Below, in pieces: positions 4,393 through 47,693 of a DNA stretch of 64,000 bases (positions are counted from its first letter, which is position 1; each line of letters starts with the position of its first letter). The stretch is from Nitrospiraceae bacterium (GTDB lineage Bacteria > Nitrospirota > Thermodesulfovibrionia > Thermodesulfovibrionales > UBA1546), in the NCBI GenBank assembly GCA_021373015.1, contig JAJFTJ010000005.1, positions 225,072-289,071 on the forward strand, given 5' to 3'. Under the pieces are notes generated by a model that saw nothing but the letters and a program-made list of their open reading frames with translations, was not told the origin of the DNA and ran no database searches. A program made the position numbers and the translations under genes.

Positions 4393-5436
4393 ATGAAAAA
4401 AGTAACTTTGATGTTAATCGCAGTATGTTTAATAGCATTTATTGCTCCGGTTTACGCTGCTGTTGGAAAGATTTCAAAAACAAACGGCGAAGTTCTCTTC
4501 AGAACCAAGGCGAATATTCCTTATCAGAAGGCAAAAGAAGGATCTGGACTTGAAGTCGGCTATTGGGTAAAAACAGGCAAAGATGGATGGGCAAAACTTT
4601 TATTGGCTGATGGAAGCACTTTTACTCTTGCCAATAACACTGAACTTGAGATAGATAAATTTCTTCTTTCCAGTACAAAGAAAGAAGGTATTTTCAGCCT
4701 TGCGCAAGGAAAGCTTAGGGCTACTGTCACAAAGATTGCAGGCCAGCAGACAGATTATAAAGTAAAAAGCCCTACTGCTGTTGCAGGAATAAAGGGCACA
4801 GAATTCATGATGATGAGCCAGGGATATGCAAACGTTCTCTTTGGCAATGAAGGAACTGCAGATATATCAGGAGCAGCAGGTGTCGATAAACCTTTAACAA
4901 CAGACACAATGGTGCAGAACACAAGAGGCTTCACTCCTATTGATCCAATTAAAGTTGAAAAGAATACTCCTTTATATACAGCAAAAAAATATTTTGATTC
5001 CATTACTGCGTCAAAACCGCCGAAAGAATGGGAAACATCAGGAAATCTTCCTCATATAATTGCAAGATGGAATATAAATTACGGTCATTATCTTGCTGAT
5101 GTAGGGAAATACGAAGAGGCTCTTTATATTTTTCAGATCTCGATTGATCTTTCGGATAATTCAGACATCAGAAGCGATGCAAGACTGGAGAGGGGGGCTG
5201 TATACTCAAGGTTTTTGAATAACAGCGAAGCAGCGCTTGCAGAATACCTTCTTGTTCTCGAGGAGTACCCTGACAATCCAAAGAGAGAAAATGCCTTATA
5301 CCTGACAGGTATGCTTTTATACGAGATGGGTTTCACAAAAAAGGCAAAGGAGAGATTGCAGCAGTATATAAAAGATTTTCCGTCCGGCAAGAATGCCGGC
5401 AATGTAGAGACTATTCTTAAAACGATAAAAGAATAG
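4393..5436 (+). CDS. Exported FecR-domain protein with C-terminal TPR-like region
   Basis: Signal peptide MKKVTLMLIAVCLIAFIAPVYA. FecR-like GEVLFRTK...GLEVGYWVKTGKDGWAKLLLADGSTFTLANNTELEI. C-terminal helical repeats. Confidence 0.75.
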   Translation: MKKVTLMLIAVCLIAFIAPVYAAVGKISKTNGEVLFRTKANIPYQKAKEGSGLEVGYWVKTGKDGWAKLLLADGSTFTLANNTELEIDKFLLSSTKKEGIFSLAQGKLRATVTKIAGQQTDYKVKSPTAVAGIKGTEFMMMSQGYANVLFGNEGTADISGAAGVDKPLTTDTMVQNTRGFTPIDPIKVEKNTPLYTAKKYFDSITASKPPKEWETSGNLPHIIARWNINYGHYLADVGKYEEALYIFQISIDLSDNSDIRSDARLERGAVYSRFLNNSEAALAEYLLVLEEYPDNPKRENALYLTGMLLYEMGFTKKAKERLQQYIKDFPSGKNAGNVETILKTIKE

Positions 5437-5475: not shown

Positions 5476-7572
5476 ATGAAATATTCCAAGCTTCTGCAAT
5501 TCATTGCCATTGGCATTATTGCTGCAATTGCCACTTTTCTTTTCTATAGACAAAAGGTGGATTTTCTTGAGGCTGTTGATCTTAAATTGAAAGATGCAAG
5601 ATTCAAGATAAGAAAAACTATTCAGCCTGATAACAGAATTGTAATAGTAGCAATTGATTCAAAGAGCGTTAATGAAATTGGCAGATGGCCTTGGAAACGT
5701 TCAGTTATGGCAGAACTTTTGGACAGCCTGAAAGAATACGGGGTTAAAGTCTCTGCCCTCGATATTGTCTTTTCTGAAACCTCAGACAAGAAAGACGACG
5801 AGATACTATCAAAATCAATAAAGAAAAACGGGAATGTGATATTAGGTTATTTTTTCAGGGATGAAGAAGAAAAACCGGATACAGAAGCAATCTCACAGCT
5901 GCAATCCTCGAAAATAAAACTTGTCAGAATCCAAGAAGGTGTTACATCAGTCCCAATATCAGAACGGCCTTTTATTGAAGCAAATATACCTCTTATAGGC
6001 CAAGGAGCATTGGATTTTGGATTTTTTAATACTGATCCCGACCCTGATGGTCTTGTCAGAAAAGCGAGTCTTCTTATGCTTTATCAGGGCGAGATATATC
6101 CTTCGCTTGCATTAAAGGCATTGAGGCATTATACGGAAAAAGAGATAATGCTGGACATTGCATCTTTTGGCGTATCTACACTAAGGCTAGGGCAGATGTC
6201 TATTCCTTCGAATGAGAGCGGTAAGCTTGTCGTCAATTATTACGGCAGGGGGGGAACCTTCACTACATTGTCTGCAGTAGACGTAATAAAAAAGAGAATT
6301 AAGAAAAATGATCTGGAAAATAAAATCGTGTTTATCGGCGCAACTGAAGTCGGGATCTATGACATGAGAGCAACCCCTGTGCAATCAGCTTTTCCCGGCG
6401 TGGAGATTCACGCTACTGTTGCGTCAAGTGTTTTACAAGAGAGATTTATAATAAGAGATACAAGAATCATCGGTATCGAAATGCTCTGTTTATTTTTATT
6501 GCCTGTAATCCTGGTCTTAATTCTAGGTTTTCTCAGAAATGGTTTTCTCGGTTTGATGGCCTTTATTCTTCTTATTTTCGCGTATGCGTTTTTAAATTAC
6601 TCGTTATTTAAAACATACTCGATCGATATGAGCGTACTCTATCCTTTATCATCAACGGCAATAGCCTTTGTCGGAGCTGAAGCATACAGGAATCTGGTTT
6701 TCGAAAAAAAGAACCGATACTTAAAAAAAGCGTTTTCAAGTTACATTTCTCCTGAACTGGTGAGTGAGATAATAAAGAATCCTGACAGGCTCTCACTTGG
6801 CGGAGCAAAGAAAGAAGTAACAATACTTTTTTCTGATATCAGAGGATTCACAGGAATATCTGAAAAGCTTCAGCCTGATGTGCTTGTATCGCTTCTTAAT
6901 GAGTATTTAGGCCCGATGACAAAGGTGGTTTTGAAAAACAACGGGACACTTGATAAATATATTGGAGATGCAATAATGACAATATACAATGCGCCTCTTG
7001 ATGTTCCTGACCACCCATTAAAGGCATGCCAGACAGCAGTAGAAATGCTGAGTGAACTTAATATTATCAATGAAAGCTTCAAGGAAAATGGATTGCCGAA
7101 TATTAATATTGGCATCGGCATAAACACAGGCTATGCAGTAGTCGGCAATATGGGAGCTGACATGAGATTTGATTATACTGCGATCGGTGATACTGTAAAT
7201 CTTGCTTCGAGGCTCGAAGGCCAGAATAAATATTACGGCACTCACATTATACTCAGCGAATACACAGCACATAGGGTAAAGTACAAATTCATACTAAGAG
7301 AACTGGATCTTCTTAAAGTTGTAGGCAAGGAAAAACCAGTAGCTATTTTTGAACTTATGACAGAACAGAATGAAAAACTTGCTGAAGAATTTTCCAAGTC
7401 TCTGAAATTTTACAGGGGAAAAGAGTTCAAAAAAGCCCTAGCTTCGTTTAAAAAGCTTTCGACTGAACATAATGATAACGTGTCAAAAATGTATGCTGAT
7501 AGATGCAATGAATATATAAAAAATCCTCCTTCCGACAGCTGGGATGGGATATTTATATCAATGAAAAAGTAA
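5476..7572 (+). CDS. CHASE2 sensor-domain class III adenylate/guanylate cyclase
   Basis: CHASE2 signature IVIVAIDSKSVNEIGRWPWKRSVMAELLDSL...ALDIVFSE. TM helices around residues 330-400. Cyclase core VTILFSDIRGFTGISE...LDKYIGDAIMTIYNAP...GDTVNLASRLE. Confidence 0.9.
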   Translation: MKYSKLLQFIAIGIIAAIATFLFYRQKVDFLEAVDLKLKDARFKIRKTIQPDNRIVIVAIDSKSVNEIGRWPWKRSVMAELLDSLKEYGVKVSALDIVFSETSDKKDDEILSKSIKKNGNVILGYFFRDEEEKPDTEAISQLQSSKIKLVRIQEGVTSVPISERPFIEANIPLIGQGALDFGFFNTDPDPDGLVRKASLLMLYQGEIYPSLALKALRHYTEKEIMLDIASFGVSTLRLGQMSIPSNESGKLVVNYYGRGGTFTTLSAVDVIKKRIKKNDLENKIVFIGATEVGIYDMRATPVQSAFPGVEIHATVASSVLQERFIIRDTRIIGIEMLCLFLLPVILVLILGFLRNGFLGLMAFILLIFAYAFLNYSLFKTYSIDMSVLYPLSSTAIAFVGAEAYRNLVFEKKNRYLKKAFSSYISPELVSEIIKNPDRLSLGGAKKEVTILFSDIRGFTGISEKLQPDVLVSLLNEYLGPMTKVVLKNNGTLDKYIGDAIMTIYNAPLDVPDHPLKACQTAVEMLSELNIINESFKENGLPNINIGIGINTGYAVVGNMGADMRFDYTAIGDTVNLASRLEGQNKYYGTHIILSEYTAHRVKYKFILRELDLLKVVGKEKPVAIFELMTEQNEKLAEEFSKSLKFYRGKEFKKALASFKKLSTEHNDNVSKMYADRCNEYIKNPPSDSWDGIFISMKK

Positions 7573-24085: not shown

Positions 24086-24117
24086 TTAACGGATTATCTG
24101 CAACAAGTGAAATTTAA

Positions 24118-29578: not shown

Positions 29579-30226
29579 ATGAAAAAACAGGGTGGCATCA
29601 AACAACCATATACATTCACTGGAAGAGAATATGATGCTGAGACTGGAATGTATTATTATCGTGCAAGGTATTATGATCCGAATAGCGGGAGATTTATCTC
29701 AAAGGATCCGATTGGTTTTAAAGGTGGGGATGTGAATTTATATAGATATGTCGGAAATAATCCCATAAATATTATTGATCCGTTTGGATTACACGAAGTG
29801 CATTTTATACCAATTTATCATACTCTTAAACCTACATACGATCATTTGGTAATAACCTATGACGACAAAGGTATCCCAGTAAATATAAGCTCTGGAAGCA
29901 TCAAGCCAGATCCAAAGCAAGATAATTGCAAAAAAGGATGTCCGACTATTGAAAGCAGATCATATGATTTTGTACGAGATGATTTTCCAAAAACACTGAA
30001 GCGTGCAGATCAAACAAGGTATCCGGCGTTGTTTATTGGTACAGTACCAACCACTGCGTCAAATCCAAACAATAATAATACGCGTAGTGCTAAAGGTGTT
30101 TGGATTCATAAGGGCTACAAAGATAGGACATGTGCAGAAGGGTGCTTAACGATCGACCCAACTGATTGGGAGAAATTTATGAAGAACTTCCCAAAGGGTT
30201 CGACCGGAAAAGTCATAGTTTGGTAA
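29579..30226 (+). CDS. Orphan Rhs-core C-terminal fragment fused to a variable toxin-like domain
   Basis: YTFTGREYDAETGMYYYRARYYDPNSGRFISKDPIGFKGGDVNLYRYVGNNPINIIDPFGL is the end of the RHS-repeat-associated core, about 70 aa only with no Rhs shell upstream. A 145-aa unrelated tail follows. Confidence 0.75.
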   Translation: MKKQGGIKQPYTFTGREYDAETGMYYYRARYYDPNSGRFISKDPIGFKGGDVNLYRYVGNNPINIIDPFGLHEVHFIPIYHTLKPTYDHLVITYDDKGIPVNISSGSIKPDPKQDNCKKGCPTIESRSYDFVRDDFPKTLKRADQTRYPALFIGTVPTTASNPNNNNTRSAKGVWIHKGYKDRTCAEGCLTIDPTDWEKFMKNFPKGSTGKVIVW

Positions 30227-30242
30227 TTAAAAAGGAGCTAAA

Positions 30243-30848
30243 ATGTTTTACAAGAAAGAAACAATGACAATTTTGAGCATTTTGGTAATTACAATATTAT
30301 TTGGTACTCTGGCCAATACAGAACAAAAAAATAAACTGCCAAGGTCTTATGGACCGCTTTATTTAGGCATGTCTGTAAAAGAGTTTAAAAAAATTTTTGT
30401 TGGTGTAGATCTCGCTAGATGTGTACATTGTGCAGAGGAAGAACTTGAAGCAGACTTATGCATTACAAAAGAATCTCGGAGTACTAATCTATGTGATAAT
30501 GTGAATCCCATCAAATTCAAGGATGCATATGTAACATTTCAACCAAACGAATTGAAAACTAACAAAATAACATGCTTCTTTTATAAAGGAGTGCTATACG
30601 ACATTGTGATGGGAAATATTGCAGCTAAAGTAGGCTCCGTTAAAGAGCATTATATAAAAGATTTAGGCAAACCAACTGCTGATGCTGTGTGGGATACAGG
30701 ATTATCACAGTTGCGATGGGAGCACGCTTCAACTATGTTAAGTGTCACTTTTGCTACTGAAAAAACCTCGAAAAAAAATGATGATGATTTTATTGAAATT
30801 AGATATACAGATTTAAAAATCCTAAAGCAGCTTCCACAGGGGAAATAG
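30243..30848 (+). CDS. Exported hypothetical protein, candidate cognate immunity protein
   Basis: Starts 16 nt after the toxin ORF. N-terminal signal/anchor TILSILVITILFGTLA. No family recognised; the call rests on position. Confidence 0.4.
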   Translation: MFYKKETMTILSILVITILFGTLANTEQKNKLPRSYGPLYLGMSVKEFKKIFVGVDLARCVHCAEEELEADLCITKESRSTNLCDNVNPIKFKDAYVTFQPNELKTNKITCFFYKGVLYDIVMGNIAAKVGSVKEHYIKDLGKPTADAVWDTGLSQLRWEHASTMLSVTFATEKTSKKNDDDFIEIRYTDLKILKQLPQGK

Positions 30849-30955: not shown

Positions 30956-30967
30956 GTGAAAATTCAC
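30956..30967. promoter_or_regulatory. 12-bp palindrome GTGAAAATTCAC abutting a -35-like TTGATT; candidate Crp-family site
   Basis: Perfect inverted half-sites GTGAA/TTCAC. It is the reverse complement of the 12-mer at 41287-41298. Followed by TTGATT (30968-30973), 18 nt, TATATT (30992-30997). Confidence 0.45.
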
Positions 30968-31006
30968 TTGATTTGCTTCTTAGTCATCCAGTATATTTCA
31001 TGGGTA

Positions 31007-31513
31007 ATGAAAACACTTGCAATTATAATATTTTTTATTTTTACTGCATCAACAGCCTCTGCCCTCAGTGTAAATGACAATGCGCCTTTATTTTCTTTAA
31101 GAGACAGCGATGGAAAGTTTTTCTATCTGAGCAATTATATCGGTTCAAATAGAAACAGCTCTTCAAAAGGCGTTATCATAAACTTTTTTGCATCAACCTG
31201 TATTCCATGCAAAAAAGAACTTCCAATTCTTAACTCTATTGTTGATGAATTCAGAAAAAAAGGCATAGAGATTGTGATAATCGGATACAAAGAAGATTTT
31301 AATAAAATTGGAGAGATGCTTAATGCATTAAGTGTTGATAAGCCTGTAATTCTCAGCGATATATACGGCAAAGTTGGAGAGAAGTACGGAGTAATAGGAC
31401 TGCCGCTGACACTAATAATCAATAAAGACGGAAAAGTAAAAGAAATTATCTGGGGAGAAAGAGCTAATATAGACAAAATATTAAGAGAGAAAACAGGACG
31501 ACTGCTGAAATGA
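31007..31513 (+). CDS. Exported thioredoxin-fold (TlpA/redoxin-like) protein
   Basis: Signal peptide MKTLAIIIFFIFTASTASA. FFASTCIPCKKELP CxxC motif. The track GTG start at 30956 lies inside the palindrome, so ATG 31007 is preferred. Confidence 0.8.
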   Translation: MKTLAIIIFFIFTASTASALSVNDNAPLFSLRDSDGKFFYLSNYIGSNRNSSSKGVIINFFASTCIPCKKELPILNSIVDEFRKKGIEIVIIGYKEDFNKIGEMLNALSVDKPVILSDIYGKVGEKYGVIGLPLTLIINKDGKVKEIIWGERANIDKILREKTGRLLK

Positions 31514-32142
31514 AAAGAACCTTGGTAATTCTATTTGTGATTTTTTTAATAACACCGCTTTTTGCCGCTGAAAAATCTTCTAATCTCAAGGATCAAAAAG
31601 CAAAAACTCAGAACACAAAAGCACCAGAGAATATAAAGCTTGTAGAAAACTATGTTGCGATTTTTGACCTTGAGACGCAGGGCGTGGACAAAAAGATCTC
31701 CCGTCCATTAACAGATAGTATAATTTTGGAGATAGTTAAGACTGGGAAATATGAAGTCATAGACAGAAGCAACATGAACAAGGTGCTCAGTGAGCAGAAA
31801 TTTCAGCTGTCAGGATGTGTATCAGGGCAATGCGTGGTAGAGGCAGGCCAGCTTCTTGGGGTTGGGAAGATAATAGTTGGTTCTGTGGGCATAGTAGGCA
31901 GTACTTATTATCTTTCGCTTTCACTGATAAATGTAACCACAGGAAAGATAGAAACATCCTCAGAAGACAAATGCAAGTGCGCAATAGATGAGCTTATAGA
32001 ATCAAGCAAAAGACTTGCAAAGAAACTGATGGGAGAAAAAATTGATGCAGTAACAACAACAAAACCAGAGATAAAACCAGAAACAACTCCAGTGACAAAA
32101 CCAACAACAGGAACTACAACAAGACCAACTCGTTTTCGCTGA
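31510..32142 (+). CDS. Exported CsgG/FlgO-like domain protein with Thr/Pro-rich tail
   Basis: ATGA overlap with the upstream gene. YVAIFDLETQ...YEVIDRSNMNKVLSEQKFQLSGCVSGQC..AGQLLGVGKIIVGSV. Tail TTTKPEIKPETTPVTKPTTGTTTRPT. Confidence 0.6.
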   Translation: MKRTLVILFVIFLITPLFAAEKSSNLKDQKAKTQNTKAPENIKLVENYVAIFDLETQGVDKKISRPLTDSIILEIVKTGKYEVIDRSNMNKVLSEQKFQLSGCVSGQCVVEAGQLLGVGKIIVGSVGIVGSTYYLSLSLINVTTGKIETSSEDKCKCAIDELIESSKRLAKKLMGEKIDAVTTTKPEIKPETTPVTKPTTGTTTRPTRFR

Positions 32143-39234: not shown

Positions 39235-39332
39235 CTTTTGTATTTTATACCTTTCCTTTTATTTTGCAAGCGATTTCTTGCGCTTGTTTTCATCCATGGA
39301 ATAATGTAAAATCTTGTTTTGAATTAACACGC

Positions 39333-40571
39333 ATGGTTAAACTATTTACATACATAAAAGATAAAGTTTTTATATTCTTTGCTGTGTTCTGGCAGTCTGT
39401 TAAATCTTTTTTAAAGAACGACAATTCTAATATAGCAGCTTCATTGGCTTACCATTCTTTGTTTGCGATAATTCCTTTATTATTACTTTTGTTTTTTGCG
39501 CTCAGCTTCTTTATAACATCCTCAAGAGCAGTAATGTCCAGAATTACGTCTTTAATCTCCGAGTTTATTCCTTATTACAGCGAGACGATTCTGCAAGAAG
39601 TTTATTCTCTGTCAAAACATCAAAGTATATGGGGGATAATAAGCGTTCTCACTCTCATGTGGGCTGCAACACCGCTGGTTAGCACTCTTCGCAAGGCTTT
39701 TTTTGATATATTTAAAATAGAGGAAAGGCCTTCTTTTTTAAAAACAACCTTGCTTGATATTGGAGTGATACTTCTTACTCTCACGATCTTTGTTCTTCTC
39801 AGCTTCACACATGTGACATTCAAAAGCATACATATTTTAGGAGAAAGCACCGCTTTTTACAATGCAGCGTCATACACTGTTACAGTGATGATAATATCCG
39901 TATTTTATCTTGCATTTGTCCCTGTTAAGACATCATTTCTTTACGTTGCAACTGGCGCCATTATAACGACATTTTTCTGGGGAATTATCAGGCCAGTATT
40001 TGGATTGTTTTTATCTTATAACCCTCAGTATGGCATTGCCTTTGGTTCATTAAAAGCATTGTTTATAATCATAATATGGATTTATTATTCGTTCAGCGTA
40101 TTACTCTTTGGCGCAGAAATAATTGCCAATCTCAGAAGAAAAGATGTCTTGCTTATAAAAAAACTGTTTTATGAAGATTACAGCAGCAAAACAAAATCCA
40201 GACTTAAGAATAAATTCGGCAAAAGCTACAAAAGCGGAGACCTGATTTTTAAGCAGGGGCAGAAGGGTGACGAAATGTTTTATATCCTCTCTGGTGGCGT
40301 AAGATTAACCTTGCCATCCAAATTACAGAATAACAATGAAAACGAACAAATAATCAGAATTATGAAAAAAAATGAGTACTTTGGTGAAATGGCGCTTCTT
40401 ATTGGCACTCCCAGAACAACGAATGCTTATGCTGAAAATGATGATACAATTATAATTAAGATAAATCCTCAAAATTTTGAAACTCTTTTAAGAGAGGAAC
40501 CAAAGATTGCAACAATGCTGTTAAAAGAACTTGCCCAGAGGTTAAAAAAAACCAATGAATTTCTTTGTTAA
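39333..40571 (+). CDS. YihY/BrkB-family membrane protein fused to a C-terminal cyclic-nucleotide-binding domain
   Basis: N-terminus SNIAASLAYHSLFAIIPLLLL plus about six TM helices (YihY pattern). C-terminus GDLIFKQGQKGDEMFYILSG...YFGEMALLIGTPRTTNAYA (cNMP beta-roll with Arg-Thr). Start ATG 39333 or TTG 39264. Confidence 0.8.
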   Translation: MVKLFTYIKDKVFIFFAVFWQSVKSFLKNDNSNIAASLAYHSLFAIIPLLLLLFFALSFFITSSRAVMSRITSLISEFIPYYSETILQEVYSLSKHQSIWGIISVLTLMWAATPLVSTLRKAFFDIFKIEERPSFLKTTLLDIGVILLTLTIFVLLSFTHVTFKSIHILGESTAFYNAASYTVTVMIISVFYLAFVPVKTSFLYVATGAIITTFFWGIIRPVFGLFLSYNPQYGIAFGSLKALFIIIIWIYYSFSVLLFGAEIIANLRRKDVLLIKKLFYEDYSSKTKSRLKNKFGKSYKSGDLIFKQGQKGDEMFYILSGGVRLTLPSKLQNNNENEQIIRIMKKNEYFGEMALLIGTPRTTNAYAENDDTIIIKINPQNFETLLREEPKIATMLLKELAQRLKKTNEFLC

Positions 40572-40576
40572 TTAAA

Positions 40577-41272
40577 ATGGAGAAAGATAACAAAAAAGAA
40601 TTAATACAGGGATTTCTTAAAGAGATGCCTATTTTTAAAAGCCTGTCCGAACCTCATATAAACAAACTTGCAAAAGACTTTGTTGTCCTTCAGGCAAAAA
40701 AGGGAGAAACAGTATTCTACCAGTCAGATCAAAGCACTGATCTCTATATTGTTCTTGATGGCTCTGTCAGGGCTTCATTGTTGAATCAGGAAGGCCAAGA
40801 GTTAATCCTCGCCGCATTCAAGAAGGGTGATTTTTTCGGGGAGATGAGTCTTCTTGACGGGATGCCCAGATCTGCAACAATAATAGCTGTTGAAGATCTG
40901 ATATTAGCAATGCTGAAGAGAGAGCTATTTCTTTCTGCTGTTAAAAATGATCCCATGATAGCAATAGACCTTCTTTCTTCTGTTGTGCAGAGACTTAGAA
41001 CTGCAAATGGAATGATTGAATCTCTTGCATTTCTGGATGTCAGCCAAAGACTGATTAAGCTGTTTCTGCAGATTGCTTCAACTGGATCAGAAAAAAATAA
41101 CGAGGGATTTCTGCGTATTGGAAAAATAACGCATCGGGAACTTGCTGCGAGAACAGGCGCATCTAGAGAAGCAATATCAAAAGTCATAAAAGTGCTTATT
41201 TTCAGAAAGATTCTTAAAGAAGATGAGCGGCATTTTTTCATATCTCCCAAGGCTGAACAGGAGGTATTTTAA
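40577..41272 (+). CDS. Crp/Fnr-family transcription regulator (cNMP-binding type, no Cys)
   Basis: FFGEMSLLDGMPRSATIIA (Glu and Arg-Ser of the cAMP pocket). HTH ITHRELAARTGASREAISKVIKVL with an Arg-Glu pair. No cysteines, so not an Fe-S FNR. Confidence 0.9.
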   Translation: MEKDNKKELIQGFLKEMPIFKSLSEPHINKLAKDFVVLQAKKGETVFYQSDQSTDLYIVLDGSVRASLLNQEGQELILAAFKKGDFFGEMSLLDGMPRSATIIAVEDLILAMLKRELFLSAVKNDPMIAIDLLSSVVQRLRTANGMIESLAFLDVSQRLIKLFLQIASTGSEKNNEGFLRIGKITHRELAARTGASREAISKVIKVLIFRKILKEDERHFFISPKAEQEVF

Positions 41273-41286
41273 TCCAAACATACAAG

Positions 41287-41298
41287 GTGAATTTTCAC
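41287..41298. promoter_or_regulatory. 12-bp palindrome GTGAATTTTCAC abutting -35 TTGACA; candidate Crp-family site
   Basis: Perfect half-sites GTGAA/TTCAC, 15 nt after the Crp-type gene's stop codon. Same 12-mer (reverse complement) as 30956-30967. Confidence 0.45.
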
Positions 41299-41327
41299 TT
41301 GACACTATATGATTATCTTTATACACT
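41299..41327 (+). promoter_or_regulatory. Candidate promoter of the exported-protein array
   Basis: TTGACA (41299-41304), 17 nt, TACACT (41322-41327). A second inverted repeat ATACAC-TTTGA-GTGTAT (41321-41337) overlaps the -10. Confidence 0.4.
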
Positions 41328-41403
41328 TTGAGTGTATGATTGCACTTTCAAAATATTAACGTAACATTTTGTTTTTAATAAACTTTTATAATGGAGGCTT
41401 TGC

Positions 41404-42162
41404 ATGAGAATTAAAATTTTAGCCATGACTTTCTTAGTGTCCTTTTTCCTGATGTATGGAGCAGCTTCTGCTATTGGTCTTGAGGCTGCAATAGGAGTTT
41501 GGAATCAGGATCCTTCAGGAGACATTAGTTACAAAGGGGAATCATTAAGCGTGGGTAATGACCTTAAGTATGATTCTGAGGTCAAGTTTTTCGGCAGGGC
41601 AAAGATAGAACTGCCTCTTATATTTCCTAATATTTATTTGATGGCAACACCGATGAAGTTCGAAGGAAGCGGACAAAAAAATGTAAACTTTCAATTCGGC
41701 GACAAGACATTTACAGGAAGCGTGCCTTTCAACTCAAAAATTCAACTTGACCATTATGACATATGTTTCTATTACAATCTTCCTTTTCTTAAGACCCTTT
41801 CTCTCGGCAAGCTCAATGCAGAGGTTGGATTGAATGCAAGAATTTTTGATTTTAAGGCTGAAATTGATCAGCCGTCAACAGGGATTAAAGAAACAAAGAA
41901 TATGACGCTTCCTGTTCCTATGGTTTATGTAGGAGCGCAGTTTAAGCCGATAAAGCTCTTTTCATTAGAGGCAGAGGCAAGAGGGATTGCATTTAGCGGT
42001 AACCATTATTATGACTTAGTAGCAAGGCTCAAGGTTAAACCTATAGGTCCGTTATTTATAGCAGGCGGATACAGATATGAGGATGTAAAGATTGACGAAA
42101 AAAGTGTAAAAGCGTCTCTGAAATTCCAGGGTCCGTTTGTTGAAACAGGGCTTGAGTTTTAG
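41404..42162 (+). CDS. Outer-membrane beta-barrel protein
   Basis: Signal peptide ...MYGAASA. Alternating strands. C-terminal ...FVETGLEF with terminal Phe. Confidence 0.65.
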   Translation: MRIKILAMTFLVSFFLMYGAASAIGLEAAIGVWNQDPSGDISYKGESLSVGNDLKYDSEVKFFGRAKIELPLIFPNIYLMATPMKFEGSGQKNVNFQFGDKTFTGSVPFNSKIQLDHYDICFYYNLPFLKTLSLGKLNAEVGLNARIFDFKAEIDQPSTGIKETKNMTLPVPMVYVGAQFKPIKLFSLEAEARGIAFSGNHYYDLVARLKVKPIGPLFIAGGYRYEDVKIDEKSVKASLKFQGPFVETGLEF

Positions 42163-42186: not shown

Positions 42187-43356
42187 ATGTCTAAGAAAGC
42201 CATGAGATTAACTTTACTGTTTCTTGCAGTATCTTTATTCTTGCCTGTTGTTTCAAGTGCTCAGGTAAAATGCGTTAATTCTGAAGGAGAATCAGTGATT
42301 ATAAACAACGACATACCTTCAGCGAAGACAGAGGCAACAGCAAGGGCAAAATGGTCTGCTATTGAGCAAACAGTCGGAGTAGAAATAAAGGCACAAAGTG
42401 TTGTTCAAAATTTTGCACTGGTTGACGATGCAATCAGCAAGAATATAAAAGGAACAGTGCAAAGTTACAAGGTTCTGCTTGAGGACAACAGAAAAGATAC
42501 TTTCTGGGTGAAAATAAATGCCTGTATTGAGCCAACAAAAGCAAAAGATGCCTTGATGACCATGGCGCTTAACAATTCAGTTGCAGTATACATTCCTGCA
42601 AGAAAACCAAGGGTTATAAGCGAACATGATACCAAGAAAAGCAGTTACATACATACTAAAGATGAATATGACGAGACAAATTTTTTCTCTGAATCATTGA
42701 TTAACAAACTGCTTCAACAGGGCTATCAGGTTGCAGATATAGCGCCTACTCATGCAATAGAGGCTGCTGCTATTGACAGCGCCCTTAAGTCAGGTAACTA
42801 CATGACGTTAAGATCGCTGATGTACAAATTTCTGTCAAATGTTCTGATGATAGGCAAGATCGACTATACAATCTCGACCAAAAAAGGCGAAGATGTTGGG
42901 TATGGCATTAACATGCCTTTTTACGCTGTAACAACCAGGCTTACTTACAGGCTTATAACAAGAGATCAATCAGGAAGAAATTCTATCATTCATGCAGATA
43001 CTGGCGAAGCAAAAGGGCTTGCACTGAGTGTTGGAGACGCAACTGAAAAGGCGATTAAAGAACTCTCTGAAAAAATTACACCCACAATCCTTGATGTGCT
43101 TTCAAAGCATGTTGCCGGAGCTTCAAAAAAGATCAGCCTTAGCGTAAAAGGAGTCAGCGATATAAACACAAGCTTCAGGGTGAAAGAGATATTGCAGAAT
43201 ACAGCATGGGTCACCTCTGTGGAGGAGAAATCACTTGGAGAATTTCTTGTTGGTTATCCTGAAAATATTGTATATCTGATTAATAGTCTTTCGCAGAAAA
43301 ATTTTAAGATTTCTAATTTCACAGGCTACTCAGCAACTATGGAATACAGACAATAG
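42187..43356 (+). CDS. Exported protein with LPP20/FlgT-N-like N-terminal domain
   Basis: Signal peptide ...PVVSSA. SEGESVI...AKTEATARAKWSAIEQTVGVEIKAQSVV pattern. A middle alpha/beta region and C-terminal beta domain loosely recall FlgT. Confidence 0.45.
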   Translation: MSKKAMRLTLLFLAVSLFLPVVSSAQVKCVNSEGESVIINNDIPSAKTEATARAKWSAIEQTVGVEIKAQSVVQNFALVDDAISKNIKGTVQSYKVLLEDNRKDTFWVKINACIEPTKAKDALMTMALNNSVAVYIPARKPRVISEHDTKKSSYIHTKDEYDETNFFSESLINKLLQQGYQVADIAPTHAIEAAAIDSALKSGNYMTLRSLMYKFLSNVLMIGKIDYTISTKKGEDVGYGINMPFYAVTTRLTYRLITRDQSGRNSIIHADTGEAKGLALSVGDATEKAIKELSEKITPTILDVLSKHVAGASKKISLSVKGVSDINTSFRVKEILQNTAWVTSVEEKSLGEFLVGYPENIVYLINSLSQKNFKISNFTGYSATMEYRQ

Positions 43357-43378: not shown

Positions 43379-44353
43379 ATGAAAAGAGTTTTTCTTTTTT
43401 TCTTAGTAATTGCGCTGGCATTAAGCTTTGCCATAACAACTACATCTGAAGCAGCCAAGAAAAAAGTTGCAGTACTTGATTTCGAATACGGCACGATAAC
43501 TGACAGATGGTGGCCGGGCTCATGGAATATAGGCAAGGGAATCGCTGATATGATGGTTACACAACTCGTAAAGGATGGCACATATTCTGTAATTGAGAGA
43601 AAAAAACTTGATGCGATTATTAGCGAACAGAAGCTTGGAGCAAGCGGACTTGTTGATGCTTCCACGGCTGCACAAATTGGAAAGATACTCGGTGTTCAGT
43701 ATGTAATTATAGGTAGCATTACTCAGTTCAGCATTGATACATCAGAAATAGGGCTTGGCGGTATTGGTGCAAAGTTTGGGTTTGGCGGAGCCGGCGTATC
43801 AAATACCGTTGCTAAGGTTTATATTGACGCAAGGATGATCGATACCACTACTGCTGAGATCATCGGCGTTGCTGAAGGCAAGGCCGAAGACAGTAAGAAA
43901 GGCCTGAAGCTTGGCGGTGGAAATTACAAAGGGTTCGGGGGTCTTTCATTTGCGAGCAAAGGATTTAATGAAACAATACTTGGACAGGCAACAAGACAAT
44001 GCGTTGCTGATGTAGTTAAACAGCTTACAGGCAAGGCAGCAACTTCAAGTTCAGACGGCGAAGATGCTCCTAAGACAGTGAAAGTAAAGATTGCTGACAT
44101 TGATGCAGGATCAAAAACAGTAATACTCGACGGCGGGAGCAGCACTGGGATATCAAAAGGCCAGACGCTGTATGTCGTGAAAGTAAAGAAAGAGATAAAG
44201 AGCCCTACAACAGGCGAAGTTATTAAACGAATTACAGAGACAGTAGCAGAATTGAATGTTACTGAGGTTGATAAAACCTCTGCAACTGCAACTATTGTTA
44301 AAGGTGACCCCCGAAGTTTCAAAGCAGGGGATGATGTAAGTTCAACAAAATAA
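43379..44353 (+). CDS. CsgG-family protein with additional C-terminal beta-rich domain
   Basis: KKVAVLDFEYG...IADMMVTQLVKDGTYSVIERKKLDAIISEQKL...AAQIGKILGVQYVIIGSITQF...AKVYIDARMIDTTTAEIIGVAEG. Signal peptide present but no lipobox Cys. Confidence 0.8.
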   Translation: MKRVFLFFLVIALALSFAITTTSEAAKKKVAVLDFEYGTITDRWWPGSWNIGKGIADMMVTQLVKDGTYSVIERKKLDAIISEQKLGASGLVDASTAAQIGKILGVQYVIIGSITQFSIDTSEIGLGGIGAKFGFGGAGVSNTVAKVYIDARMIDTTTAEIIGVAEGKAEDSKKGLKLGGGNYKGFGGLSFASKGFNETILGQATRQCVADVVKQLTGKAATSSSDGEDAPKTVKVKIADIDAGSKTVILDGGSSTGISKGQTLYVVKVKKEIKSPTTGEVIKRITETVAELNVTEVDKTSATATIVKGDPRSFKAGDDVSSTK

Positions 44354-44391
44354 CGATGCTTAAATTTAGTTTGAGATATAAGGAGGAAGAC

Positions 44392-45600
44392 ATGAGAAAT
44401 TCTTTAAGACTTTTAGCTGTAGTTTTTATTCTCTTATTTGCCTATGCATGTGCAAAACCGGTTGCAAAATGCACAGACCCTGAAGACAATCCATCTCACC
44501 ACTATTTGGTAGGAATGGAGAATCTTGAGAAAGGAAAGATCGATATTGCAAATGAGAAATTCGAAAGGTCGATTTTTTGCGATGCCAAGTTTTCTCCTGC
44601 ATATGGAGGGCTTGCAATTGTAACTGCTGAAAAGGCAAAGGCGCAGATTGATCTTAAGTTCAAAGCAGTAGAATCTGAGCGCGCAAAAGAATATCTAAAA
44701 AAGGCTGATAAATCAGCAGAATCGCAGGAAGACAGTTTTGATTACAATCTGGCTGTAATAAGAGTCAATACAATTCTTAAAGGTAAAGACTGGCTTAACA
44801 AAGCAGAAGATGCATTTAATGACGCTAGAAAACTCAAGGTTGAGGAAAAGAAGCTCATTTATTATCAGGGCATAGAAGCATCATCTTATTTTATAGGGAT
44901 TGCTTACCTTGAGGCTTCAGAATTCCAGAAAGCACGCGACAGGTTTTCAGAAGTGCTCAACATGAAGAGAGAAGGCAAGTGGAACGAAAAAGCTGACAAA
45001 GCATGGAAGCGCGTTGACAAAATTGTCAGAGCAATGTCAGGGATAACAGTAGGCGACGTCGGGAAAAAGATTGCTGTTAAAGAATCTATAACAAGAGGAG
45101 ATTTAACAGCTCTCTTAATTGATGAACTTAAACTTGATAAACTTTTTGCAGGACGCATCCCTTCCAAGTCAAAAGTTGACAAGATGAAAGCAGAATTTAC
45201 GCCTGCTGACATTATGAATTATCAGTTCAAAGATGAGATACTTACTGTCATGAAATGGAAGGTAAGGGGACTCGAGCCTAAATTTGACACGACAACCCAG
45301 GCATACTTATTTAAACCAGCAGAACCTGTATTAAGACAGGAGATGGCCCTTATTCTCGAAGATGTGCTTATTAAGCTGACTGGGGATGAGAAGATAGCAA
45401 CAGCATATTTTGGTCATGAAAAATCGCCATTTCCAGATGTAAAGCCGACAGCTCCATGGTATAACGCAGTAATGAACATGACATCAAGAGGGATAATGGA
45501 ACCTGAGATTTCAGGAGAGTTCAGAGTTGACTCTTTTGTTGACGGAGCAGAAGCGCTTCTGGCTATCAGAGTATTAAAACAAAAGATGAACATATATTAA
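44392..45600 (+). CDS. Lipoprotein with TPR-like N-terminal half and SLH-like C-terminal repeats
   Basis: AGGAGG RBS. Lipobox LLFAYAC. C-terminal FPDVKPTAPWYNAVMNMTSRGIM resembles an S-layer-homology motif (tentative). Confidence 0.55.
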   Translation: MRNSLRLLAVVFILLFAYACAKPVAKCTDPEDNPSHHYLVGMENLEKGKIDIANEKFERSIFCDAKFSPAYGGLAIVTAEKAKAQIDLKFKAVESERAKEYLKKADKSAESQEDSFDYNLAVIRVNTILKGKDWLNKAEDAFNDARKLKVEEKKLIYYQGIEASSYFIGIAYLEASEFQKARDRFSEVLNMKREGKWNEKADKAWKRVDKIVRAMSGITVGDVGKKIAVKESITRGDLTALLIDELKLDKLFAGRIPSKSKVDKMKAEFTPADIMNYQFKDEILTVMKWKVRGLEPKFDTTTQAYLFKPAEPVLRQEMALILEDVLIKLTGDEKIATAYFGHEKSPFPDVKPTAPWYNAVMNMTSRGIMEPEISGEFRVDSFVDGAEALLAIRVLKQKMNIY

Positions 45601-45624: not shown

Positions 45625-46590
45625 ATGAAAAAAATACTTGTAGTTGCTTTAATGTTAGTTTTTGCAATTGTAGCTATTGCTATTGCGCAGAATCAGCCAG
45701 TTCCACCGCCATCTGAACCTAATGTATCTGTACCTGCTGTGCCAAGCAGCAGCTCTAAGATTGATGACAGATTCCAGAAAGCAAACGAATGGCTTAATCA
45801 GAGCAAACTCACAGTTACAGAAAATCAGACAGATGCATTTGTGAACGGGTACATACTGGTTGTTGCTGAAGGACTTCCTCAACCAGATGCAACCTCAATT
45901 GGCAAGAAGAGACTTACCGCAGAAAGAGCTGCGGAGGTGCTTGCCTACAGAAAACTCGCCGAGTTTTTGGATGGAGTGGCAGTTATCGGAGACACATTAG
46001 TAAAAGATGCTGAACTCAAATATGATGTTGTAAGGGCAGCAGTTGCAGGTTTTGTAAAAGGCGCTCAGGTTGTTCATAAGGAATATAACAAAGAAGAAGA
46101 AACAGCGCTTGTTATAATGAAAGTCGGGTTAAATGGCCCTGGAAGTTTTGCAGACGCAATGTATGCCAAAATACTCCAGCCTGATGTAAAAAAAGATCTC
46201 CAGCCCACACCAATCCCCCAGTACAAACATAAACCTGTGCCATTGGACAGCGTGTATGACAGTCTTATTATCGATGCAACTAAACAGAATTTTAGACCTG
46301 CATTGATAAACAGACTCTTCACAACAAAAGGAGAGGTCATATATGACCCTTCAAAGATCAGCCAGAAGGTATTGGTTGAGCAGGGATGCGGTGAATACAC
46401 AAACAGTGTTGACAAGGCAAAAGCAGCGCTTGAACAAAGAGGAGCAAAAAATCCTTTGATCATTCAAGCATCCGGTTCAGTAAATCCATCTGACCTTCAG
46501 GTTTCTGATGATGACGCAGTCTCGATATTCTCTGCCAATCAGAAATCAAGATTTCTGTCTGCTGCAAAAGTAGCTTTTGTATTAAAATAA
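45625..46590 (+). CDS. Exported LPP20/FlgP-like domain protein
   Basis: Signal peptide ...AIAIA. VVAEGLPQPDATSIGKKRLTAERAAEVLAYRKLAEFLDGVAVIGDTLVKD...VAGFVKGAQVV matches the LPP20-family pattern as I recall it. Confidence 0.6.
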   Translation: MKKILVVALMLVFAIVAIAIAQNQPVPPPSEPNVSVPAVPSSSSKIDDRFQKANEWLNQSKLTVTENQTDAFVNGYILVVAEGLPQPDATSIGKKRLTAERAAEVLAYRKLAEFLDGVAVIGDTLVKDAELKYDVVRAAVAGFVKGAQVVHKEYNKEEETALVIMKVGLNGPGSFADAMYAKILQPDVKKDLQPTPIPQYKHKPVPLDSVYDSLIIDATKQNFRPALINRLFTTKGEVIYDPSKISQKVLVEQGCGEYTNSVDKAKAALEQRGAKNPLIIQASGSVNPSDLQVSDDDAVSIFSANQKSRFLSAAKVAFVLK

Positions 46591-46598
46591 TTTTCATA

Positions 46599-46634
46599 TT
46601 GACTGCCTTGTTTTTTAAAAAACAAGGCAGTCAA
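46599..46634. repeat. 36-nt perfect palindrome / hairpin between two array genes
   Basis: TTGACTGCCTTGTTTTTT|AAAAAACAAGGCAGTCAA read directly. Begins 9 nt after the 45625 ORF stop and ends 7 nt before CAGGAG, the RBS of ATG 46656. Confidence 0.85.
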
Positions 46635-46655
46635 TTAAAACAGGAGCATTTAAAA

Positions 46656-47693
46656 ATGAATATGAGAATTTCAATATATGCACTTTTTATTTCTTTTTTA
46701 TTAGTATCATGTGCTCCGCCATCTGTAAAAACAACAATGCTTACACCTGCAAAATTTCACGATGCGTCAATGATCAAGGAAATAGCAATACTACCATTTG
46801 ACGGACAAGGCGGCGCTGAATTTGCCGCTGAACTTGAAGGCATGTTTGCCGGGATTAATCTGAACGACAAACAATATTTCACTATAGTTGATAGGAATAA
46901 AATTGATAAGATTATCAGCGAGCTTAAATTTACGCAGAGCGCTTTAGTCGATGAGAAAACTGCAGTAAAGGTCGGCAAACTTGTAGGCGCAAAGGGGATT
47001 TACAGCGGGGTTATTACATCAAGTAAAGTAAGCGATAATTACTTTACAGAAAGCCGTTCCCGCTGTGCATATACAGCTACACAATATGATAAAAAAGGCA
47101 AGCCTTATCAGGTCTGCGCACAATACGAAAACTACAATGTCAGATGCTCAAAACGAACTGCTATATTCTCAGCAACTCCTAAACTTATTGAGATTGAAAC
47201 AGGAAGGGTTGTTTATGCCAACAACATATCAGGCTCTGAAAACTCATCAGCATGTGAAGACACAGGCAAACCGCTTATTGACAAAACACTCCTGCTTAAA
47301 AATGCAAGAGACCGCGCTAAGTCAATGCTCAGAACTGATGTCGCGCCGTATTATGTAACAGTTCAGATAAAGCTTCTTGATTCAACATCAGGCATAACAT
47401 CAAAAGAAGCCGAGAACAAACTTGAACAGGGGATTGATTTTGCAAAAAATAATAGACTTGACAGAGCATGTGAAATATGGGGAGAGGGGCGCATACTAGC
47501 TCCAAATTCATCTTCCATACTCTACAACCTTGGCATTTGCGCTGAAGTGACAGGTTCTCCAGAACAGGCCTTAGACTTGTATAAAAAAGCTGATAGATTG
47601 ATGAATCAGCCTGATGAAAATATAACAGCAGCGCTTGCACGAGTCAATAAGGCGATACAAGACAAGGACAAACTGAAAAAACAGACTCAATAA
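46656..47693 (+). CDS. Lipoprotein: CsgG/FlgO-like domain, Cys-rich middle region, C-terminal TPR
   Basis: Lipobox FLLVSC. KEIAILPFDGQ...FTIVDRNKIDKIISELKF...AVKVGKLVGAKGIYSGVI. ATG 46656 is preferred because the longer track ORF would read through the palindrome. Confidence 0.65.
   Translation: MNMRISIYALFISFLLVSCAPPSVKTTMLTPAKFHDASMIKEIAILPFDGQGGAEFAAELEGMFAGINLNDKQYFTIVDRNKIDKIISELKFTQSALVDEKTAVKVGKLVGAKGIYSGVITSSKVSDNYFTESRSRCAYTATQYDKKGKPYQVCAQYENYNVRCSKRTAIFSATPKLIEIETGRVVYANNISGSENSSACEDTGKPLIDKTLLLKNARDRAKSMLRTDVAPYYVTVQIKLLDSTSGITSKEAENKLEQGIDFAKNNRLDRACEIWGEGRILAPNSSSILYNLGICAEVTGSPEQALDLYKKADRLMNQPDENITAALARVNKAIQDKDKLKKQTQ

Follow-up and report, generated by a model that had tools for sequence, protein, structure and literature searches.

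Organization of the locus

We analyzed a 64-kb stretch of DNA, referred to below as the window, which holds ~50 genes. A gene for a Crp/Fnr-family regulator, called crp here, is followed on the same strand by an array of genes for exported proteins, and a candidate operator adjoining a predicted promoter lies between them. The features of the locus are as follows.

39264-40571, + strand: YihY/BrkB membrane protein fused at its C terminus to a cNMP-binding domain (Pfam); ends 5 nt before crp
40577-41272, + strand: crp, Crp/Fnr-family regulator of 231 aa with a cNMP-binding domain and HTH_Crp_2, recognition helix GASREAISK (Pfam, BLASTP)
41287-41298, + strand: candidate Crp-type operator, the 12-bp box GTGAATTTTCAC, predicted to span -47 to -36 with its center at -41.5 (alignment and logo)
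41299-41304, + strand: -35 hexamer TTGACA, abutting the box (TTGACA or TTTACA at all related sites)
41322-41327, + strand: -10 hexamer TACACT, 17 nt past the -35 hexamer (TAnAnT at logo positions 35 to 40); predicted start at ~41334
41321-41337, no strand assigned: inverted repeat ATACACT-TTG-AGTGTAT, noted earlier as ATACAC-N5-GTGTAT, overlapping the -10 hexamer and the predicted start (sequence)
41404-42162, + strand: TIGR04219-family outer-membrane beta-barrel protein with a signal peptide (187 bits; cutoff, 105), first gene of the array
42187-43356, + strand: exported FlgT_N-like protein, the first gene past crp in most orthologous loci
43379-44353, + strand: CsgG-family lipoprotein with weak FlgT_M/FlgT_C matches (domain search)
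44356-45600, + strand: lipoprotein with a C-terminal SLH domain (domain search), 2 nt past the preceding gene and without a box here
45625-47693, + strand: two more exported proteins, 45625-46590 (no family match) and 46599-47693 (CsgG-like plus TPR) (domain search)

The same-strand array runs on to at least 52148, and its later genes encode transglutaminase-like, GNA1162-like/NosD/TPR, DUF4140/DUF4139, and TPR-CHAT proteins. A ribosome-binding site (GGAGG) lies upstream of the 41404 gene. The gene for the YihY-cNMP fusion is probably cotranscribed with crp; this pair is present in loci L001, L003, L115, and L180 and absent from L004 and from Thermodesulfovibrio yellowstonii. The order conserved among related loci is an optional YihY/BrkB-cNMP fusion, the Crp-like regulator, the FlgT_N-like protein, the CsgG lipoprotein, the SLH lipoprotein, and further genes, from which the window differs by having the TIGR04219 barrel gene directly after crp. 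In most relatives, the SLH lipoprotein gene has its own box promoter (GTGAAWWTTACC followed by TTTACA), which is the usual second copy of the box in a locus, whereas it has none in the window. Elsewhere in the window, the gene for a class III adenylate/guanylate cyclase with a CHASE2 domain (5476-7572) comes after that for a FecR/TPR protein (4393-5436); the cyclase is a possible source of cyclic nucleotide for both the Crp-like regulator and the YihY-cNMP fusion.

The regulator is a cNMP-type member of the Crp/Fnr family

The 40577 product belongs to the Crp/Fnr superfamily by its matches to Pfam cNMP_binding (E = 2.3e-23) and HTH_Crp_2 (28.1 bits; cutoff, 27). It scored 97.4 bits against the NCBIfam CRP equivalog NF008732, well under the cutoff of 266, and is thus a family member rather than a CRP orthologue. 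Its closest full-length relatives in the PDB are GlxR, Thermus Crp, Mycobacterium tuberculosis CRP, and CAP, with the best matches among the actinobacterial CRP/GlxR and Thermus structures (3r6s, 4byy, 3d0s, and 4ev0; E ~1e-26 to 1e-23), and orthologues with 55 to 74% identity occur throughout the Thermodesulfovibrionales, including T. yellowstonii. The protein has a cNMP pocket and contains neither an Fe-S cysteine cluster nor PrfA-like features.

The original prediction held that this protein keeps the Glu and Arg-Ser of the cAMP pocket and an Arg-Glu pair in its recognition helix. Alignment with E. coli CRP by BLASTP bore this out: E72, R82, and S83, which contact the phosphate and ribose of the cNMP, correspond to E89, R98, and S99, and R180, E181, and R185 of the recognition helix correspond to R197, E198, and K202. 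Among orthologues, pocket residues G88, E89, R98, and S99 are invariant, as is the helix GASREAxSK with its equivalents of R180 and E181. The adenine contacts T127 and S128 are replaced by A143 and N144 (A/D in most orthologues, as read from the alignment), and therefore cAMP is not assured as the effector. In CRP and FNR, the loop of activating region 3 contacts sigma region 4. The acidic loop aligned to this region of CRP (K52 to E58) keeps the equivalents of E55 and E58 and has Leu in place of K52, which would be compatible, if weakly, with such a contact.

The box abuts the -35 hexamer of a predicted sigma-70-like promoter

The coordinates first reported for the box, the -35 hexamer, the 17-nt spacer, the -10 hexamer, the inverted repeat, and the distance to crp were each verified in the sequence; the box starts 15 nt past the stop codon of crp. 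The core promoter, TTGACA-17-TACACT, obtained a score of 10/12 in a promoter scan and is sigma-70-like. Since the box abuts the -35 hexamer, which is followed by 17 nt and TAnAnT, it would span -47 to -36 with its pseudo-dyad at -41.5 relative to the predicted start. This agrees with the earlier estimate of a center 41 to 42 bp upstream of the start, and with respect to the predicted start, the same position beside the -35 hexamer, that of class II sites, recurs at 38 unique sites described below. The half-sites of the window box are spaced as GTGA-N4-TCAC (equivalent to GTG-N6-CAC), 2 bp less than in the canonical GTG-N8-CAC, so the box does not match the canonical operator TGTGA-N6-TCACA.

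We also considered the inverted repeat over the -10 hexamer as a conserved operator and rejected it. Versions of TACACT...AGTGTA with loops of 3 to 9 nt are found in the window and in five other distinct orthologous promoters, L001, L008, L010, and L016/L083 among them, and the repeat is absent from L004, L009, L012, L015, L019, and L115. Only about one orthologous promoter in two thus has the repeat, and the variable loop length argues against a rigid dimeric operator. The predicted start would leave the left arm of the repeat untranscribed. In L011, the two arms seem to change together (TAAACT...AGTTTG in place of TACACT...AGTGTA). At the RNA level, folding of the promoter region was not significant (z = -0.39), an Rfam search of the region gave no match, and the features of an intrinsic terminator or structured RNA were lacking, with no T-run after the stem of the box and pairing lost in variants that have TTACC.

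The box is conserved past the crp stop codon

In 14 diverse loci, the box and the -35 and -10 hexamers form the sole conserved block between the stop codon of crp and the next gene. An unanchored MAFFT alignment of these 14 orthologous intergenic regions, with a mean column identity of 40%, had invariant columns throughout the box and invariant or nearly invariant columns at -35 and -10 (T61, A62, T66, and T67 of the -10 region were kept). For instance, L001 and L004 carry an identical GTGAATTTTCAC-TTGACA-N17-TACACT directly past the crp stop codon within unrelated surrounding sequence, and the site of T. yellowstonii reads GTGAAAAATACC with TTTACA. Judging from these alignments, the box is conserved across the order Thermodesulfovibrionales (Nitrospirota), while its flanks have diverged. 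It starts after the crp stop codon in ~17 distinct loci, although crp and its target cluster are syntenic, so that co-localization is confounded with orthology.

The perfect palindrome GTGAA/TTCAC emphasized in the original prediction is present in the window, but it is not the conserved unit. Across 87 compared loci, most orthologous sites read GTGAAWWTTACC, and the palindromic TTCAC form is confined to a sub-clade.

A second box promoter in the window

A motif search located another copy of the box in the window, with the following features.

30956-30967, + strand: second box, reading GTGAAAATTCAC (motif search; orthologous redoxin promoters elsewhere)
30968-30997, + strand: core promoter with TTGATT (30968-30973), an 18-nt spacer, and TATATT (30992-30997) (sequence)
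31007-32142, + strand: genes downstream of the second box for an exported TlpA/redoxin-like protein (31007-31513) and a CsgG-like lipoprotein (31510-32142)

The 12-mer had been predicted to recur once, at this place and in the same geometry. The copy is real and abuts the -35-like TTGATT, but the spacer measures 18 nt rather than 17 and the leader is nearly absent: the ATG at 31007 lies just 9 nt past the -10 hexamer TATATT, an arrangement (30992-31009) that implies a near-leaderless mRNA. The redoxin promoter of L092, which is orthologous to that of the window by tblastn, carries GTGAAAATTACC followed by TTGACA, and L173 has the same box at a redoxin promoter assigned through its near-identical promoter sequence. 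This recurrence places the second site in the same conserved set. The L092 and L173 promoters have predicted leaders of ~110 to 130 nt and a poor -10, GTATTG.

We counted two copies of the 16-mer GTGAAWWTTCACTTGA in the window, whereas 100 shuffles that preserved dinucleotide composition averaged 0.00 copies. When 1 or 2 mismatches to the 12-mer were allowed, occurrences in the window were at chance level, and canonical CRP sites were not enriched either (27 found versus 30.2 expected). We rejected the near-matches at 36673, which lies inside a long ORF, and at 24107, which has no -35-like hexamer. A third box was not found among the ~50 genes of the window, the others of which, housekeeping genes included, have none; the box is thus not a general promoter feature.

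Recurrence of the box at promoters of exported-protein genes

A logo was built from 38 unique sites, which come from 0.9 Mb of related loci. It reads aa-K-GTGAA-WW-TT-(AC/CA)-C, followed by TTKACA, 17 nt, and TAnAnT, and its dyad symmetry reaches the AA at -3/-2 and the first TT of the -35 hexamer. The recurring boxes of related loci have one orientation only and always touch a -35-like hexamer; in the hybrid sites, GTGAA is distal to the -35 hexamer in 23 cases and the reverse arrangement occurs in 0. The site of L027, GGTAA-TT-TTACC, is fully symmetric.

A single genome carries the box at several promoters. In L165 it precedes the orthologue of the 766-aa GNA1162/TPR protein of the window, further box promoters precede exported-protein genes on contigs without any of the cluster genes of the window, and some boxes lie on contigs away from crp, as in L092, L093, L104, L139, and others. 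The first predicted downstream ORFs nearly all start with a hydrophobic, signal-peptide- or lipobox-like N terminus, as read by eye, and their products include the TIGR04219 barrel, FlgT-like and CsgG-like proteins, the SLH lipoprotein, and the redoxin.

We then scanned 185,579 species genomes with GTGAAWWTTACCTTKACA, the TTACC form, by which palindromic TTCAC sites are not represented. Among the 120 stretches listed, ~40 (about a third) were in Nitrospirota/Thermodesulfovibrionales metagenome-assembled genomes (MAGs), with at least 4 matches to the strict 18-mer in one MAG. A TAnnnT hexamer 16 to 18 nt past the -35 was found for 25/40 of the listed Nitrospirota matches versus 13/76 in other taxa, and 10/40 versus 58/76, respectively, lay within a stop-free stretch of ≥150 codons. 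The listed matches in other taxa, mostly in long ORFs and seldom with a -10, are thus taken as chance matches in coding sequence. The Nitrospirota sites divide into promoters of SLH genes, promoters of orthologues of the redoxin operon (L092 and L173) and of the GNA1162/TPR gene (L165), and those of the exported-protein genes on contigs devoid of the cluster. A search for enrichment in promoter regions had been proposed as a check on the original prediction, and strong over-representation in promoter context was indeed what we observed, both in the 38 unique sites per 0.9 Mb and in the listed Nitrospirota matches, mostly endowed with a -10 and outside long ORFs.

Regulators with a different recognition helix accompany canonical boxes

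All homologues with a short box in their locus have the helix (G/S)(A/S)SREA(I/V)(S/T)K. In contrast, loci of more distant homologues (35 to 44% identity) with the helix SRE(A/T)ITR, which we call the sister clade (L063 to L082), are devoid of promoter-type short boxes and carry perfect TGTGA-N6-TCACA boxes instead, with 19 unique boxes in 144 kb versus 0.14 expected. Conversely, the perfect canonical box is absent from loci with an SREAxSK helix, L029 being the single exception. In most sister-clade loci, the first box lies ~75 to 150 nt past the stop codon of the regulator gene. The sites that we checked by hand consist of the box, 17 to 18 nt, and an extended -10 (TGnTAnnnT) without a -35 hexamer, the box being centered at -41.5 or -40.5; by their sequence, these sites have a textbook class II layout, and promoters of this type, with an extended -10 and no -35, look activator dependent. 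Perfect boxes are also found in arrays in this clade: L063 contains four TGTGACGTACGTCACA boxes within 3.7 kb (725, 1420, 2214, and 3268), and similar arrays are present in L065 to L072, L077 to L079, and L082, in which the helix is SRETITR.

Both clades thus have the regulator gene, then a target promoter with a box at -41.5, and several boxes per locus, with box length differing, which suggests that adjacent boxes report the specificity of the regulator. This parallel supports the view that the short half-site spacing would be a real property of the SREAxSK clade, and the distinct specificity postulated at the outset is backed by the SRETITR homologues, which have canonical N6 boxes in the same layout. 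The sister clade differs in its perfect canonical TGTGAC-N4-GTCACA boxes and in its extended -10 promoters lacking a -35. We also looked for signs of autoregulation; in 21 loci, the 1.8 kb preceding crp or yihY contained no box.

Discussion

We propose that the 12-bp box is a class II-type operator of the Crp-family regulator encoded upstream, with an unusually short half-site spacing, and we assign this reading a probability of roughly 0.6 on the basis of comparative sequence data. In this model, a dimer of the regulator loaded with cyclic nucleotide would bind GTGAA-WW-TTMMC centered at -41.5, touching the -35 hexamer of sigma-70-type promoters. The bound dimer would contact RNA polymerase in the manner of a class II activator, and operons for envelope and exported proteins, such as the TIGR04219 barrel, FlgT-like and CsgG-like proteins, the SLH lipoprotein, the redoxin, and others, would be switched on. 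Activation would be favored over repression, and the -35 hexamers, at or near consensus, suggest that activator dependence may be modest. A broader proposal, to which we would give slightly less than even odds, is that a cNMP-type Crp clade of the Thermodesulfovibrionales uses a compact 12-bp operator, GTG-N6-CAC, beside an intact -35 hexamer at -41.5, which would represent a new geometry of the Crp-DNA-RNA polymerase complex and put a conserved envelope module (the TIGR04219 barrel and the CsgG-like, FlgT-like, and SLH lipoproteins) of an anaerobic lineage under cyclic-nucleotide control.

In E. coli CRP, Arg180 and Glu181 read the GTGA half-site, and class II sites such as galP1 consist of TGTGA-N6-TCACA centered at -41.5. 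The regulator described here shares the fold family of CRP, the equivalents of E72, R82, and S83, and the R-E pair of the helix, and the distal half-site, aaTGTGAa, is CRP-like, with the same predicted site center of -41.5. Unlike in E. coli, the core of the box is 12 bp long (GTGA-N4-TCAC), its proximal half is usually TTACC, and it does not overlap the -35 hexamer; the protein itself deviates at R185 (Lys) and at T127/S128 (Ala/Asn). The recognition helix of E. coli CRP, RETVGR, ends in Arg, as does SRE(A/T)ITR of the sister clade, and that of GlxR and M. tuberculosis CRP, RETVNK, ends in Lys. GlxR and M. tuberculosis CRP are global regulators that bind 16-bp sites of the TGTGA-N6-TCACA type. 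Actinobacterial CRP/GlxR and Thermus thermophilus Crp are the closest full-length structures, and RETVNK resembles REAISK; in contrast to their 16-bp sites and global role, the box has 12 bp and has so far turned up in front of envelope and exported-protein operons. As a near-identical helix binds N6-spaced sites, the helix alone would not explain the short spacing. The SREAxSK and SRETITR clades thereby constitute a natural protein pair for what sets half-site spacing.

FNR (14-bp TTGAT-N4-ATCAA) and PrfA (TTAACA-N2-TGTTAA) also act at class II sites centered at -41.5. Both resemble the present case as Crp/Fnr-family dimers with a site at that position, and PrfA shows that a site of this family can be a compact palindrome with only a short spacer between its halves. 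However, the core G of their sites lies 4.5 bp from the dyad, in the canonical register, whereas that of the box lies 3.5 bp from it. The alternative classes of Crp-type sites that we found in the literature are longer than canonical, with an N8 spacer or GTG-N10-CAC (PMC10187061, PMC4681086). By comparison of sequences, the half-sites of the box would be 2 bp closer than in any characterized Crp/Fnr site that we found. A literature search for Crp regulons of Thermodesulfovibrio or for GTG-N6-CAC sites returned nothing relevant, and we know of no Crp/Fnr protein that uses GTG-N6-CAC.

The box might instead be read by another factor, or by RNA polymerase itself as a lineage-specific UP-like or extended -35 element, its adjacency to crp reflecting synteny only. 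The strict orientation and fixed abutment to the -35 hexamer would fit such a reader, as would a spacing that is noncanonical for a Crp dimer, and the lack of a palindrome at most sites, together with the strict orientation of the hybrids, is unexpected for a purely symmetric dimer site. Moreover, the 3' part of the TTACC form, ATTACC, looks like another -35 hexamer located 6 bp upstream of the first, and the synteny mentioned above weakens the argument from co-localization. We nevertheless regard this explanation as unlikely. The window has just 2 sites in 64 kb, conserved G and C positions are unlike the A/T-only composition of UP elements, and the distal half, aaTGTGAA, is of the CRP type, in keeping with a recognition helix that contains R-E. 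In addition, regulator gene and box follow each other in the same way in the sister clade, where the box is a canonical CRP site; boxes are also found on contigs distant from crp, and we saw no other regulator gene recurring beside them.

Still less probable, in our opinion, is a repressing or modulating role for the regulator. It would then sit on the box of promoters that are strong in themselves and, for instance, prevent the alpha-CTD or sigma region 4 from making contact. These promoters, which have TTGACA or TTTACA, a spacer of the optimal length (17 nt), and an adequate -10, could fire unaided. Yet the operators of repressors usually extend into the core promoter or the start, while the box never overlaps the -35 hexamer. 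Dozens of promoters have it fixed at -41.5, where the sister clade has its canonical boxes in front of promoters that lack a -35; besides, some box promoters have a poor -10, such as the GTATTG of L092 and L173. A chance palindrome or an RNA-level hairpin, for instance a terminator for crp or a structured 5' region, is hardly credible: read-through RNA can form a 6-bp stem at the window box, but the 16-mer occurs twice versus 0.00 expected, the sequence is kept across loci while the common TTACC form no longer pairs, and the stem has neither a T-run, a significant fold, nor an Rfam match.

If the class II-type reading is correct and the regulator binds the box, the operator geometry of the Crp/Fnr family would be widened to a 12-bp core of shorter spacing next to a consensus -35 hexamer. 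Binding would also provide a ready regulon for the Thermodesulfovibrionales, an order rich in uncultivated members in which, to our knowledge, essentially no transcription factor has been characterized, and would tie cyclic-nucleotide signaling (the CHASE2 cyclase and the YihY-cNMP fusion) to remodeling of the outer envelope. Even without such binding, the box would be a well-defined, strongly conserved promoter element in need of a reader.

Other clusters associated with box promoters

Near-identical promoters, composed of GTGAAAATTACC, TTGACA, ggtttgctgctcttttg, and TATATT and continuing to ...cttttcag, were found in L117 (5951), L202 (7570), L157 (7310), and L161 (930). At least 2 copies occur within MAG FK1.bin72, and others occur in related MAGs, which suggests that these are duplicated promoter-gene cassettes.

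In higher-GC Nitrospirae MAGs (L174, 16-3380, and L146, 129-3425), a box promoter precedes another envelope cluster, which encodes a small proline-rich lipoprotein, three ORFs sharing ARLMA(R/K)RAAK(L/V)DA(L/M)RNL, and a FlgT-like protein; the three ORFs are possibly LPP20/FlgP-like. A Crp paralogue near the L174 box was rejected as support for the regulator-box link, as its helix is TVETAIR and an ORF on the opposite strand intervenes.

Just upstream of the second box of the window (29579-30848), an ORF of 215 aa has the C-terminal core motif of the Rhs/YD type, DPIGFKGGDVNLYRYVGNNPINIIDPFG, and a variable tip, without an upstream repeat region. Next to it lies a gene for a 201-aa exported protein, and the pair looks like an orphan module of the toxin/immunity type.
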